Part shown: positions 13,929-64,000 of the stretch, piece by piece
Position numbering within the stretch: the first letter of the stretch is position 1
Layout: every line of letters starts with the position of its first letter
NCBI RefSeq assembly: GCF_013315695.1
Contig: NZ_CP054354.1
From: Escherichia coli
GTDB lineage: Bacteria; Pseudomonadota; Gammaproteobacteria; Enterobacterales; Enterobacteriaceae
Reading direction: 5' to 3' (one strand)
Length of the DNA stretch: 64,000 nucleotides
The notes under the pieces: model-generated
Database searches by the model: none
Seen by the model: only the letters and a program-made list of their open reading frames with translations
What the model was told of the DNA's origin: nothing
Position numbers and translations under genes: made by a program

Positions 13929-15033
13929 TGTGATACTCCTCGCTATCTGTTGCTTTCAGGAAGAGGCGAACGGAAGTGGCGTCTTTCAGGATGCCGGACG
14001 GCAGGTGCCAGCCGGTATCTGATAACACCCAGGGGGTTCCGCCAAAACCGAACTGGCGGAAAGCCTGGTTATTGACATCGATGGCAGCACGTGCGGCGGT
14101 CAGACACTGTCCATCCTGTGCGGCCGGTGCATCGCCGGTGGGGGCCATACCACTGTCAGCGGAATACAGCTGATGCCATCCGGTCGCCCGTTTTTGTGAG
14201 TCCGGTTCACACAGCAGCGGAGCAGTCCGCTTTGTACTGGACTCCCCGCCAATCACGGAGACCGGATAAATCACCACGCTGAATTCCCGGGCCAGTTGCT
14301 TAAGCGCGGGTTCCAGCAGACGGCAGTTGATGCATGCGGGGTCAAGGAAGGCGTACAGCGTGCGTTCATGACCAGTGGACAGGTTAATGGTGAACATCCC
14401 CCGGTCTGCGTTGCGTTTAAGTACTGTGGCCAGATTACGGCGGGCCTCAGCGGCCTGAACGTGTTGTTCTTCCGTCACTGCCGTCGGGGCGGGGGCAGAA
14501 GAAGGTTCCTGCTGTGTGGGAGCCGGGCGGACCGGGATGCTGTTAACATGATGTTCCGTATGTGGGCGTGGTGTCTCTGTGTCGGTTACTGGTTCAGCTC
14601 TCCATTCCTGAGATGTAGGGTAAGCCAGCGTGGAAGGGGACTCTGCCTTCATCCAGTGGTAACCTGCAACTGTCGCCGGCAGAGCAATTCCGGCGATAAA
14701 GCCACACATCAGTGTCCGCCAGAAGCCATTTTTCCGGGAGGGATGTTTTCCTTTTCCGGCATATTCGGCATCCAGGCAGGCATCAATCGCTGAGAGCATT
14801 CTGCCGATGTGATGTCCGGGACGTTCTGCATCAACGGTATCAACAAGCACCGTTTCGGTTATTTCGCGAAAAGGGGAACTGAAGGACAGGTGCATCAGCC
14901 TGTTATTACGGTTAATCAGTGCGCCCAGTTCTGTGACTGGCAGGATGGCAATCACCTCCCGATTACCGTCAGGGTACAGGGCGGTCAGGGACAGGTGTTT
15001 ATTATTCAGTGTTGCAGTGTAGTGGATGGTCAT
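13909..15033 (-). CDS. trbB: TrbB-like thioredoxin-fold (DsbC-like) protein
   Basis: 374 aa; CxxC motif in FLDPACINC; start overlaps trbA stop (ATGA). Confidence 0.6.
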   Translation of the reverse strand: MTIHYTATLNNKHLSLTALYPDGNREVIAILPVTELGALINRNNRLMHLSFSSPFREITETVLVDTVDAERPGHHIGRMLSAIDACLDAEYAGKGKHPSRKNGFWRTLMCGFIAGIALPATVAGYHWMKAESPSTLAYPTSQEWRAEPVTDTETPRPHTEHHVNSIPVRPAPTQQEPSSAPAPTAVTEEQHVQAAEARRNLATVLKRNADRGMFTINLSTGHERTLYAFLDPACINCRLLEPALKQLAREFSVVIYPVSVIGGESSTKRTAPLLCEPDSQKRATGWHQLYSADSGMAPTGDAPAAQDGQCLTAARAAIDVNNQAFRQFGFGGTPWVLSDTGWHLPSGILKDATSVRLFLKATDSEEYHNEPAPR

Positions 15034-16373
15034 TGTTCTTTTTCCTTGTCGGCGGGATGCTGTTTTTCGGTGGTTTCGGTGGTTTCGGTGGTTTCGGTGG
15101 TTTCGGTGGTTTCGGTGGTTTCGGTGGTTTCGGTGGTTTCGGTGGTTTCGGTGGTTTCACCAGTGTCAGTGTCTTCGTCGTTATCATGGCGGCGGGGTAT
15201 CACGTCATCCGTGAGTGACCAGCGGGTTCTGATCTGACGTTTACGATCGCGATCTGGCTGAGGTTCGTCCCATATCAGGCCCAGCCCCAGCATGTCCCGT
15301 CGAAGCCCTTCAATGGCCTCTTCCACACAGGGTTCCGGGCAGGGGAGGCCGAGACGGCTGGCTTCATTTTCTGCCCGGGCAACGGCCACCACGCCGGCCC
15401 CTTCGATGAAGCCTTTTGTGGTGTTTGCCCGGTGAAGGGCATAGAAGAGCGTCCGGTCAACGCCCTTGAGCCACAGCCAGTTGGGGGGCGTCAGGCGCAA
15501 ATCATGTGCGTAAAGCCAGACCAGACCGCTGCGAACGTAACGGTGCTGCCTGAGCCACTGTTGTGCACCTTCTGTTTTTATGACCCGGATAAAGGCGTTT
15601 CTGGCCAGTGAATACACTGGCGTGCTGAAACGCCCCTGGTCCCGCTTGCTTTTGAGTCTGCAGGAGAGGTTGAGGTTATTCATCAGGGAAACAGCCGCTT
15701 TCCGGTCCCCGAGGAAGAACTGCAGGCCAAAGACGGCAAAGAGCGCTTTTTCATGTGGAGCCATGTCTTTCCAGGTGGTCAGAGGCTGGCCCAGCTGCGC
15801 CATAAAGCGCTGGCGCGTGGCCGCAACATCGAGCTGCATGTTGCGGATAAGGTTGTTCTGCGCCACAAAGACTTCCGGGGTTAGAGCGACACGGCGCTCG
15901 GGACGTTTTTGTCCGTGGAAGAGTCTGTTGCTGTCTCCGTCAGCCAGAACGGGGGCGATCGCCGGTGACAGTGATGAAAACAGATGTGGCAGCGTGTGGA
16001 TATTCAGTGGTCTGCGGGTGAAGCGGGGCTGGGCCGGATGCTGAAACCACATCCACAGAAAGCCGATCGTCATGGGAAGCAGAATCAGCCAGAGGATCCC
16101 CACGGTCTGTGACATGACATCCAGCCACTGGCTGAAAGTGATCGTTGCAGCGTTGTTGGCGGTGTTGGCCAGCAGGTTATAACGGGGGGCGGCAAAATGG
16201 TGAAAAGGCCCCCAGTCAGTCATCCCCCACATTGTGTGCAGGATCAGGCAGGTGGCAAAGACGATGTCGGGTAAAAAGAGCCAGATGAGAAGCGCAAAGA
16301 GCAGACATATGGTGCCAACGATATACCATATGTTCATCGGGTCTTCTGTTGTGGGGGAGTGTTGGTAAGACAC
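15030..16373 (-). CDS. trbA: TrbA-like protein (DotM/IcmP-like) with C-terminal (TTE)n repeat
   Basis: 447 aa; N-terminal TM segments; gene order trbA-trbB-trbC as in R64. Confidence 0.55.
   Translation of the reverse strand: MSYQHSPTTEDPMNIWYIVGTICLLFALLIWLFLPDIVFATCLILHTMWGMTDWGPFHHFAAPRYNLLANTANNAATITFSQWLDVMSQTVGILWLILLPMTIGFLWMWFQHPAQPRFTRRPLNIHTLPHLFSSLSPAIAPVLADGDSNRLFHGQKRPERRVALTPEVFVAQNNLIRNMQLDVAATRQRFMAQLGQPLTTWKDMAPHEKALFAVFGLQFFLGDRKAAVSLMNNLNLSCRLKSKRDQGRFSTPVYSLARNAFIRVIKTEGAQQWLRQHRYVRSGLVWLYAHDLRLTPPNWLWLKGVDRTLFYALHRANTTKGFIEGAGVVAVARAENEASRLGLPCPEPCVEEAIEGLRRDMLGLGLIWDEPQPDRDRKRQIRTRWSLTDDVIPRRHDNDEDTDTGETTETTETTETTETTETTETTETTETTETTEKQHPADKEKEQ
15063..15160. repeat. 9-bp tandem repeat (GGTTTCGGT unit, about 10 copies) inside the trbA 3' end
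   Basis: Direct tandem array in sequence; in-frame, encodes TETTETTE... on the minus strand. Confidence 0.9.
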
Positions 16374-62658: not shown

Positions 62659-63300
62659 TCATGTCAACGCTCCGTCATCAGATACCAGGTGCAGGAGCAG
62701 GGCGATCCTCGACTCCGGCAGAGGCTGTGCATCAAGCCGGAGGAGGTACTGGTAACGCGCTTTTGTCAGCCAGAGGGTGGAGGCAGCATCCAGCTCCTCC
62801 CTGGCTGCCGGATTGAGCGCAGGATCCGGGTACACTTTCATCAAAGACTGAACGATATCCTCCCTGACGGTTTTGATTTCACCGGCCATTTTCACGAAGT
62901 CCAGAAAGGCACTGTGACGGCGAAGGTGAGTGAAGCTGTGGCTTTCGGGGTCTGCTTTCAGGAAAAAGTAACCGGGAAACACGGCGTGTATATGTCGACG
63001 GTAACCACAGACTTTATCCGTGCGGCGGACCTTTTTCAGTATCAGGGGTGTCCAGGGAAGGACGTGTTGTTCGGAAAGCCAGGAAAAGAGATGTTCGCGG
63101 TTTTTGCCGGCAGGGATGTACTGTGCCAGATACCAGTTGCGTTGATGTAATTCACTGATATTCAAAATCCGGAACGCTCCGCGAAAATCGATCCCCGCAG
63201 GGGGGCTTCGATGTTGTTGTGAACGGCGAATACATAAAGCATGTGTCGGAAACAGCGGCTGACCCACGTTCAGCCTGGCCTGCAGTTCTGACAGGCACAT
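62659..63300 (-). CDS. NusG/RfaH-family (NGN-domain) protein, ActX-like candidate
   Basis: 213 aa; WYLAQYIPAGKNREHLFSWLSEQ...HAVFPGYFFLKADPE resembles the NGN domain; lies at the head of the long minus-strand transfer block. Confidence 0.45.
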   Translation of the reverse strand: MCLSELQARLNVGQPLFPTHALCIRRSQQHRSPPAGIDFRGAFRILNISELHQRNWYLAQYIPAGKNREHLFSWLSEQHVLPWTPLILKKVRRTDKVCGYRRHIHAVFPGYFFLKADPESHSFTHLRRHSAFLDFVKMAGEIKTVREDIVQSLMKVYPDPALNPAAREELDAASTLWLTKARYQYLLRLDAQPLPESRIALLLHLVSDDGALT

Positions 63301-63437
63301 GATTTACGCACTCTTGTAAGCCTTGTGGACGGTTTCGAGGCGGGCGAAAACCGACAACTCCTGCAAACAGGATTAATGGCTGGAAAATATATCACATAAG
63401 GATGTATCTGTGGCAAGAGCGAAGATAAGCAGTTGAA

Positions 63438-63700
63438 TAGATCGTTATATTTGATAAGACAGAATATTATTCTGTATTTGATGTTGTGTGCGGGATATTA
63501 GATCGTTTAAAAAAATTCGGCGATCTCTTCTACTGGAAAAGAAGAAAAAAGCAGCATAAAAGATCGTTTGTGAAATTGTTCATTTTTTTGACAGAGTTCA
63601 AAAAAACGACGCTTTTTAGGGGGTTAAAGAGGGCAACTGTAACTCTGAGAAATCGTGTCGGCTTTTCAAAGCGGTGGAAAAGGGGTATATTGCGGATCGT
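63438..63700. promoter_or_regulatory. four (A/G)GATCGTT motifs, the first three spaced 60-61 bp apart
   Basis: GATC at 63440, 63501, 63561 and 63695 each followed by GTT; AT-rich region upstream of the NusG-like gene. Confidence 0.3.
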
Positions 63701-64000
63701 TATTCAGTGGCTTTTGGGATCCTCGCGGTCCGGAAAGCCAGAAAACGGCAGAATGCGCCATAAGGCATTCAGGACGTATGGCAGAAACGACGGCAGTTTG
63801 CCGGTGCCGGAAGGCTGAAAAAAGTTTCAGAAGACCATAAAGGAAAACCCCCACTATTTTTCCTCGAACTTGGCGGAACGCAGAAAAATAATGGGGGCCT
63901 CACAGAATACGGGATAAGTATATATGAAACCGTACCAGAGATTCAACCCTGTGCAGTGTATAAATACACGGCACAATCGCTCCGCCATAAGCGACAGCTT

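Follow-up and report, generated by a model that had tools for sequence, protein, structure and literature searches.

The right-hand end of the 64-kb stretch of Escherichia coli DNA analyzed here (hereafter, the window) carries an array of GATC boxes arranged around a palindrome that fits the consensus of the host regulator Lrp, within a 700-bp divergent region that runs from the transfer activator gene traB (leftward) to the replication initiator gene repA (rightward). We consider it probable, if only by a narrow measure, that this is a host Lrp/Dam methylation-sensitive array that controls the rep promoter, the traB promoter, or both; Lrp binding, sensitivity to methylation, the identity of the responding promoter, and the sign of the effect are what we infer from the sequence. 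The array apparently represents a deeply conserved and so far undescribed control region of IncI-complex resistance plasmids, as no link of Lrp, Dam, or SeqA to the control of replication or transfer in the I-complex was found in the searchable literature, which excludes older subscription papers (from the Pittard, Mizobuchi, and Komano laboratories).

GATC boxes around an Lrp consensus palindrome

The heptamer GATCGTT is found at positions 63440, 63501, 63562, and 63695, in all four cases on the plus strand; with the preceding purine, it reads AGATCGTT three times and GGATCGTT once (starting at 63439, 63500, 63561, and 63694), as a first-pass annotation of this DNA had described for (A/G)GATCGTT. 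The same annotation had put the first three copies 60 to 61 bp apart; this regularity stands, with the value corrected to exactly 61 bp for both intervals, and 133 bp separate the third copy from the fourth. The stretch is also AT-rich, as had been claimed, with a GC content of 0.36 as compared to 0.53 in the window. In the whole window, 14 copies of GATCGTT are counted on both strands, where 7.3 would be expected. When the window was simulated 300 times with a first-order Markov model, at most 2 same-strand copies fell within any 262 bp, where 4 are observed, and a model trained on the intergenic region reached 4 or more copies in 0 of 3000 simulations. A motif frequency no greater than local composition predicts had been named as grounds for dismissing the motifs; the expectation is clearly exceeded, and chance or a composition artifact is rejected as their cause by the simulations and by the local density of GATC. 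GATC sites in the array are located at 63440, 63501, 63522, 63562, 63695, and 63718, and no other 300-bp stretch of the window is as rich in GATC as that from approximately 63421-63431 to 63730 (6 sites versus about 0.9 expected locally). Over the 64-kb window, by contrast, GATC is depleted (167 sites versus 274 ± 15 in dinucleotide-preserving shuffles), which sharpens the contrast of the local cluster; the plasmid may be avoiding restriction or Dam sites.

Between the first and the second motif, at the center of the array, lies the palindrome (Table 1). Its inner 15 nt (CAGAATATTATTCTG, 63460-63474) agree at 15 of 15 positions with the E. coli Lrp consensus YAGHAWATTWTDCTR and also fit AGAATwwwATTCT in full; both consensus sequences (yAGhAwATTwTdCTr and AGAATwwwATTCT) are as given in PMC5554404. 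With up to 1 mismatch allowed, this is the sole match to the Lrp consensus in the window, and 63460-63474 is a predicted high-affinity site for Lrp. Among 85 unique related sequences (described below), the 15-mer is present with 0 mismatches in 55 and with 1 mismatch in 22, and its variation falls mainly on degenerate positions of the consensus. An RNA or DNA hairpin was also considered for the palindrome, since a symmetric A>C / T>G variant gave the impression of compensatory change; half-changed intermediates exist, however, and the changes fall on degenerate Lrp positions, which favors a protein site.

The boxes that flank the palindrome were compared with the real papI-papB region (L018), in which two GATCs are located 102 bp apart. 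The pap GATC box is the 17-bp sequence TAAAAGATCGTYTAAAT; Dam acts more slowly where an A4 tract precedes GATC, and GTYTA beside GATC binds Dam (PMC4417163). At a threshold of at least 12/17, the window contains 17 matches to this box, 4 of which, including the best one in the window, fall within 140 bp in the array. Box 2 gives this top score (14/17) and has a 12-mer in common with pap GATCprox on the opposite strand. Box 3 (13/17) carries an A4 tract directly 5' of its GATC, begins with a 16-nt run (CAGCATAAAAGATCGT, 63552-63567) that is identical to the pap GATCdist context in L018, and shares a 13-mer with pap GATCprox on the opposite strand. Box 1 matches at 12/17, as does, on the minus strand, an inverted box 21 bp from box 2. 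A further GATC (63718-63721) lies 23 bp downstream of the GATC in box 4, at about +24 of the predicted rep promoter.

These sites are well maintained in the window's own plasmid class (class A; 42 unique sequences). Box 2, the inverted-box GATC, and box 3 are each present in 42/42 sequences, box 4 in 40/42, and box 1 in 35/42, with 2 more in which a heptamer insertion shifts the box; the 61/61 spacing is held in 35/37. In some class members typed as Igamma/K1 (L003 1700-1720, L004 1700-1713, and L043), motif 2 carries 2 to 3 perfect tandem TAGATCG heptamers (at about window 63499-63506), which add GATC sites 7 bp apart, and the inverted GCGATCTC is changed to AAGATCGA in these plasmids; from the sequence, this looks like a slipped-strand expansion of a methylation box.

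Conservation across plasmid classes and candidate target promoters

When metagenome contigs were searched for a 20-mer conserved in the rep leader, 110 loci with 85 distinct upstream sequences were identified; these represent at least five classes, i.e., the window's class and at least four more, including IncI1 proper. In seven B/O/K/Z/Igamma plasmids (85-100% identity), the motifs are kept and the intervening DNA is variable, and two of the seven have the tandem heptamers at motif 2. BLAST does not align the upstream DNA of the other classes with the window, and these classes have 7 to 10 GATCs each, with the Lrp site in most. The array is also located 5' of repA in an IncI2 plasmid (RepA 74% identical; array inverted) and in a Salmonella Inverness plasmid (RepA 71% identical). 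It is absent from 5 checked relatives that have an upstream regulator gene, four with an annotated "replication regulatory protein RepA" gene, which we read as CopB-type, and the fifth an IncL/M plasmid with repC, as well as from one Enterobacter IncFII plasmid without an annotated upstream regulator. Class D (L076, L083, and L090; RepA 72-91% identical) shows the Lrp core with one change (AGAATAAAATTCT or AGTATAATATTCT); no TraB match was found in the DNA examined for this class, and its upstream flank resembles IncI2.

Eight class representatives were anchored on the palindrome without gaps, and the position of each GATC was expressed as the offset of its center from the palindrome center. 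Flank identity in this comparison is 0.28-0.64, mostly near random. GATC is nonetheless found at +35.5 in 7/8 classes, at +57.5 or +56.5 in 7/8, at -66.5 in 5/8, and at -26.5 (the counterpart of box 1) and -35.5 in 4/8 each, and the number of GATCs around the palindrome is 46 as compared to 4.7 expected, an approximately 10-fold excess; permutations of the same bases that do not overlap GATC occur 1 to 6 times each. This pattern suggests that the palindrome and GATC, not the flanks, are under selection. The GATC offsets follow a 10.5-bp phase that lies half a turn away from the dyad (R = 0.77; R = 0.65 and p = 0.0007 for the 13 distinct GATC positions, with the 10.5-bp period chosen in advance). 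Judged from these alignments, the 61-bp period is class-specific (offsets -25.5, +35.5, and +96.5), and 10.5-bp helical phasing appears to be the general rule. One other element, TTTTTTTGAC(A/G) followed by the A-rich TTCATTTTTTTGACAGAGTTCAAAAAAACG (63584-63612), is kept between the window class and IncI1 in otherwise unalignable DNA; it holds a TTGACA hexamer without a good -10 partner and could be a bend, an UP-like element, or a site for another factor.

The array appears to be tied to the rep promoter because both its distance and its helical phase relative to this promoter are fixed despite intervening DNA that cannot be aligned. The rep -10 GGTATATT is kept in all classes, and the palindrome center lies 218-220 bp from it in four classes; in class D, this distance is 197-198 bp, i.e., 21 bp or two helical turns shorter. 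Over the interval from +100 to +185, identity is at the random level (0.21-0.46). Every class also has 1 or 2 GATCs beside the rep promoter, at positions that vary (+1 and +24 in the window). The rep promoter is thus the best-supported candidate target of the array. A possible second target, less well supported than rep, is a traB promoter; control of the transfer regulator had been suggested in the first-pass annotation. The candidate traB -10 (Table 1) would place the Lrp palindrome near -88, an arrangement that would be comparable to that at traJ of the Salmonella virulence plasmid pSLT, in that the Lrp consensus is found about 88 bp 5' of the guessed traB start, with box 1 at -25.5. This distance is not conserved; a -10-like hexamer is present at a similar offset in IncI1-type plasmids and in L012, not in class C, and the distance from the array to the traB start ranges from approximately 170-300 bp to more than 1000 bp.

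Helical phasing and proximity to a replication promoter are also features that SeqA would explain. SeqA requires at least two hemimethylated GATCs that face the same side of the helix and are no more than about 3 turns apart; by binding phased hemimethylated GATCs after passage of the fork, it would transiently silence the rep promoter and make the plasmid refractory to re-initiation, with Lrp secondary or irrelevant. The roughly 10-fold enrichment and 10.5-bp phasing of GATC, the GATC pairs 21-23 bp apart at 63501/63522 and 63695/63718, the GATCs at about +1 and +24 of the predicted rep promoter, and the fixed distance between array and promoter all agree with such a role. However, the gaps of 40, 61, and 133 bp in the window exceed the SeqA pairing range (up to about 31 bp), which leaves only the 21- and 23-bp pairs within it, and SeqA accounts neither for the invariant Lrp palindrome nor for the TA/AC-GATC-GT flanks and the 13- to 16-nt identities with pap Lrp sites. 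We therefore regard SeqA as an unlikely sole explanation, even though it is partly compatible with Lrp control and the two could coexist. Of the methylation-sensitive array in the style of SeqA, Lrp, or OxyR that the first-pass annotation had raised, it is the Lrp form that is upheld, at the level of sequence, by the Lrp consensus, the pap-like boxes, and the conserved GATC core.

A regulator encoded by the plasmid itself (e.g., TraC or another backbone protein) might instead recognize TAGATCGT, with GATC incidental and methylation without a role. The preferred GATC context does extend beyond the tetranucleotide, with TA or AC before and GT or TA after it (TAGATCGT / ACGATCTA), so that the conserved motif reaches past GATC to TAGATCGT(T); moreover, the repeats in the window are direct and on one strand, and their position 5' of the transfer regulator operon would suit an autoregulatory operator. 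Nevertheless, it is the GATC core and its position that persist between classes, with variable flanks (CGATCG, TGATCT, AGATCT, and others), and the resemblance is to a site for a host factor (pap). The left-hand neighbor also differs: in the window, class C, class E, and the Salmonella plasmid, it encodes a homologue of TraB (identity, 50-56%); in IncI2, where the array is kept despite a different backbone and regulator, it encodes a CaiF/GrlA-family regulator. Because the array stays beside rep with these differing left-hand regulators, a host factor is favored over a plasmid factor, and we think recognition by a plasmid regulator quite improbable.

The first-pass annotation had also offered iteron-like sites as a reading, and this did not survive. 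Iterons or a second origin, comparable to the GATC heptamers of P1 oriR and bound by RepA or DnaA, would fit an AT-rich array that adjoins a rep gene and that includes 2 to 3 tandem TAGATCG heptamers at box 2 in some relatives. Yet the repeated unit is 8-9 bp with unrelated spacers, as opposed to the 17- to 22-bp Rep-binding direct repeats that define iterons, and AGATCGT has no further copy in the 13.4-kb locus, the part downstream of repA included. In addition, the features upstream of repA indicate that the replicon is of the RepA type controlled by antisense RNA and a pseudoknot: as in the I-complex (IncI1/B/O/K/Z/Igamma), RepA/RepZ is preceded by a leader peptide, a pseudoknot, and an antisense RNAI, and a promoter scan predicts an RNAI promoter on the minus strand. 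In replicons of this type, the origin sits downstream of repA and lacks iterons. An origin function for the array seems to us scarcely credible, although DnaA boxes were not searched for.

In a scan of species-representative genomes for the array, 25 matches were obtained, mostly in distant non-enterobacterial genomes and there probably due to chance; they include two IncI1-type loci and one chromosomal locus of Klebsiella oxytoca. The latter (NBRC 105695 chromosome contig, L154 2700-2800) is an AT-rich intergenic stretch that carries ACAGAATTATATTCTG, with GATCs at +27.5, +35.5, and +57.5; these offsets are as in the plasmid arrays, a match that was partly forced by the search pattern. Two of its GATCs stand in a GATCGT or ACGATC context, neither rep nor traB is encoded nearby, and a neighboring 125-aa open reading frame (ORF) has no Pfam match.

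Plasmid setting and annotated features

The last 1.4 kb of the window are 100% identical to many conjugative plasmids of E. coli, Klebsiella, and Shigella, which are typed as IncI1/B/O or IncK2/Z and have an MPF_I transfer system; the window is an IncB/O/K/Z (I-complex) plasmid. The NusG-like gene downstream of the motifs in the first-pass annotation is indeed present on the minus strand as traB (Pfam NusG, E = 6e-5), the product of which is required for transfer of related plasmids (PMC5013300, PMC10286972). The proposed look beyond the 64-kb limit for a replication initiator also gave a result, as repA begins, in the identical plasmids, at base 64001, directly past the window end. The features discussed are collected in Table 1.

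Table 1. Positions of the array elements and of flanking genes and control elements in the window
Feature	Position	Strand	Sequence and remarks
traB	62659..63300	-	NusG-family transfer activator, divergent from rep; annotated in identical plasmids
Candidate extended -10 of a leftward traB promoter	63386..63394	-	TGaTATATT; identified by eye, not called by promoter scan
GATC box 1	63439..63446	+	AGATCGTT, wider context GAATAGATCGTTATATT; GATC center -25.5
17-bp perfect palindrome	63459..63475		ACAGAATATTATTCTGT; array center, between motifs 1 and 2
GATC box 2	63496..63512	+	TATTAGATCGTTTAAAA; pap-type, GTTTA element flanks GATC; center +35.5
Weaker inverted GATC box	63514..63530	-	GCGATCTC on plus strand; GATC 63522-63525, center +56.5
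GATC box 3	63552..63573	+	CAGCATAAAAGATCGTTTGTGA; near-copy of pap Lrp site 5 (GATCdist); center +96.5
Predicted rep (repB/repA, RNAII) mRNA promoter	63663..63691	+	TTTTCA, 17-nt spacer, TATATT; promoter scan
GATC box 4	63694..63701	+	GGATCGTT; at about +1 of predicted rep promoter
repZ-type pseudoknot leader	within 63840..63988	+	Known rep control element; Rfam PK-repZ 188.9 bits (gathering score 44)
CopA-like antisense RNAI	63840-63925	-	Rfam CopA-like 41.6 bits, below gathering score
Leader peptide ATG	63924	+	Upstream of repA (64001)

The true traB start is probably a TTG near 63166, because homology to other TraB proteins begins at about residue 45 of the annotated 213-aa ORF. The DNA 5' of this probable start (63166-63437, minus strand) represents a nearly invariant leader of approximately 210-270 nt that contains AACGCTCCGCG...CTGCAGTTCTGACAGGCA. 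IncI1-type plasmids have this leader twice (L009 1380-1520 and 2440-2580), with one copy directly 5' of traB and a remnant copy beside the GATC array, and with Hft and traA in between; the two copies suggest that IncI1 arose via insertion into an ancestral traB-array-rep layout. A 110-aa ORF at 63486-63818 was rejected as a coding sequence, as relatives have 7-bp insertions and a 1-bp deletion inside it. Elsewhere in the window, in the transfer region, a perfect 9-bp tandem repeat of TTTCGGTGG (15065-15158; 10.4 copies) encodes about ten TTE/ETT tripeptides near the C-terminus of a 447-aa minus-strand ORF (15030-16373) and is a likely site of length variation.

Proposed mechanism and comparison with known systems

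Taking the pap pilus switch and the Lrp/Dam control of traJ in pSLT as models, we propose that Lrp would nucleate on the palindrome at 63460-63474 and spread cooperatively onto the flanking pap-like GATC boxes if these are unmethylated or hemimethylated, such that Lrp occupancy and full Dam methylation of the boxes would be mutually exclusive. Two inputs would then be read, namely methylation, with an established plasmid fully methylated and a plasmid hemimethylated right after replication or conjugative entry, and the level of Lrp, which tracks the nutrient state; their combination would tune transcription of the rep mRNA and probably of traB. The unexpected finding that fresh transconjugants have less IncI1 repZ mRNA than donors do (PMC12672017) may bear on this model, although it does not represent a test of it.

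A more far-reaching version, which we put forward tentatively and would sooner doubt than accept, is that the I-complex and IncI2 plasmids carry a PapI-less, host-read Lrp/Dam epigenetic switch that couples expression of the initiator and of the transfer activator to the methylation history of the plasmid. If true, new hemimethylated copies, whether replicated or transferred, would enter a heritable, differently expressed state, which would explain in molecular terms both donor heterogeneity and the transient high-frequency transfer of newly infected cells, a state long known for ColI-type plasmids, and would provide a copy-number rescue input in replicons without CopB. IncI1, IncB/O/K/Z, and IncI2 plasmids are major carriers of extended-spectrum β-lactamase, AmpC, and mcr-1 genes; the antisense-RNA control of their replication is textbook knowledge and the control of their transfer regulators is poorly understood, and to our knowledge nothing has been described upstream of the rep promoter in these plasmids. 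A conserved Lrp/Dam array would tie copy number, conjugation, or both to nutrition and to the history of replication or entry, and would show that the pap-type epigenetic switch is not confined to fimbriae but also serves the maintenance and spread of plasmids. The targets for its study are simple, i.e., one palindrome and a few GATCs.

Several observations weigh against Lrp/Dam control as proposed here. No Lrp match other than the central site is significant, and weaker Lrp-like sites are not enriched in the array as compared to other AT-rich parts of the window. A 31-bp Lrp lattice, considered as the reason for the 61-bp spacing, is unsupported (R = 0.23-0.27). Boxes 1 to 3 in the window are direct repeats 61 bp apart, not an inverted pair with a spacing of 102-103 bp as in pap, and no PapI/FaeA homologue was found in the window (best PapI tblastn E = 0.38); PapB was not searched for. 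ACGATC is taken here to be the PapI/Lrp response element. The known derepressing mutations of IncI1 map to the Hft region beside traA, not to the array. Finally, in pESI, which has IncI1-like tra genes and a different replicon, deletion of lrp left pilV mRNA unchanged, a result that PMC5013300 mentions as data not shown.

Among known systems, the pap switch of uropathogenic E. coli (Lrp, Dam, PapI, and PapB; with the relatives sfa, daa, fae, clp, and pef) is one of the closest. Both control regions are AT-rich and divergent, the window has GATC boxes that agree with the pap box at 14/17 and 13/17 and a 16-nt identity to the site-5 context, and an A4 tract and a GTTTA element flank GATC in the window array too; in relatives (IncI1-type, class C, and class E), even the pap spacing is found, as an inverted ACGATC pair at -66.5/+35.5, 102 bp apart. 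In contrast to pap, the plasmid array is flanked by traB and repA and controls no fimbrial operon, it is centered on one consensus palindromic and presumably high-affinity Lrp site that pap lacks, and plasmid arrays have more GATCs (6-10), which are helically phased. Lrp/Dam control has reportedly been described by Camacho and Casadesus for traJ in the Salmonella virulence plasmid pSLT and in F-like plasmids. There, as predicted here for traB, one or more host Lrp sites are located 5' of the promoter of a transfer activator together with a GATC whose methylation would gate Lrp, an arrangement that would couple transfer to replication or to the entry of DNA. The site context in pSLT, TGATCTA, reads TAGATCA on the opposite strand and has the TAGATC half in common with the motif. 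The pSLT system differs in its activator (TraJ there, the NusG-like TraB here), in its plasmid family, in having a single GATC in the stretch read, as opposed to an array, and in that it is the rep promoter, not a tra promoter, to which the array described here is phase-locked.

Regions governed by SeqA and Dam (oriC, the dnaA promoter, and the P1 oriR heptamers) resemble the array in their dense, phased GATCs beside a replication-control promoter and, for some plasmid relatives, in tandem GATC heptamers; the array differs from them in that it is located away from the origin and has an Lrp consensus and pap-type flanks. Its GATC density is also below that of oriC, which has 11 GATC sites in 245 bp. 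The Hft region of the IncI1 plasmids pESBL and R64 drd-11 likewise is non-coding and located between tra regulators and repZ, and its alteration changes both transfer frequency and copy number (Yamaichi 2015; Poidevin 2018). Hft, however, adjoins traA and is separated by about 250 bp from the IncI1 GATC array to its right (pESBL coordinates converted to L009), and Hft and traA are both absent from the window's plasmid class; identity of the array with the Hft region was thus rejected on coordinates. Compared with known Lrp/Dam switches, what is new is the place, i.e., the replication and transfer control region of I-complex and IncI2 plasmids, and, as far as the sequences indicate, a design in which one consensus palindrome is flanked by phased GATC boxes, with no PapI-type partner and with a putative phase lock to the rep promoter.

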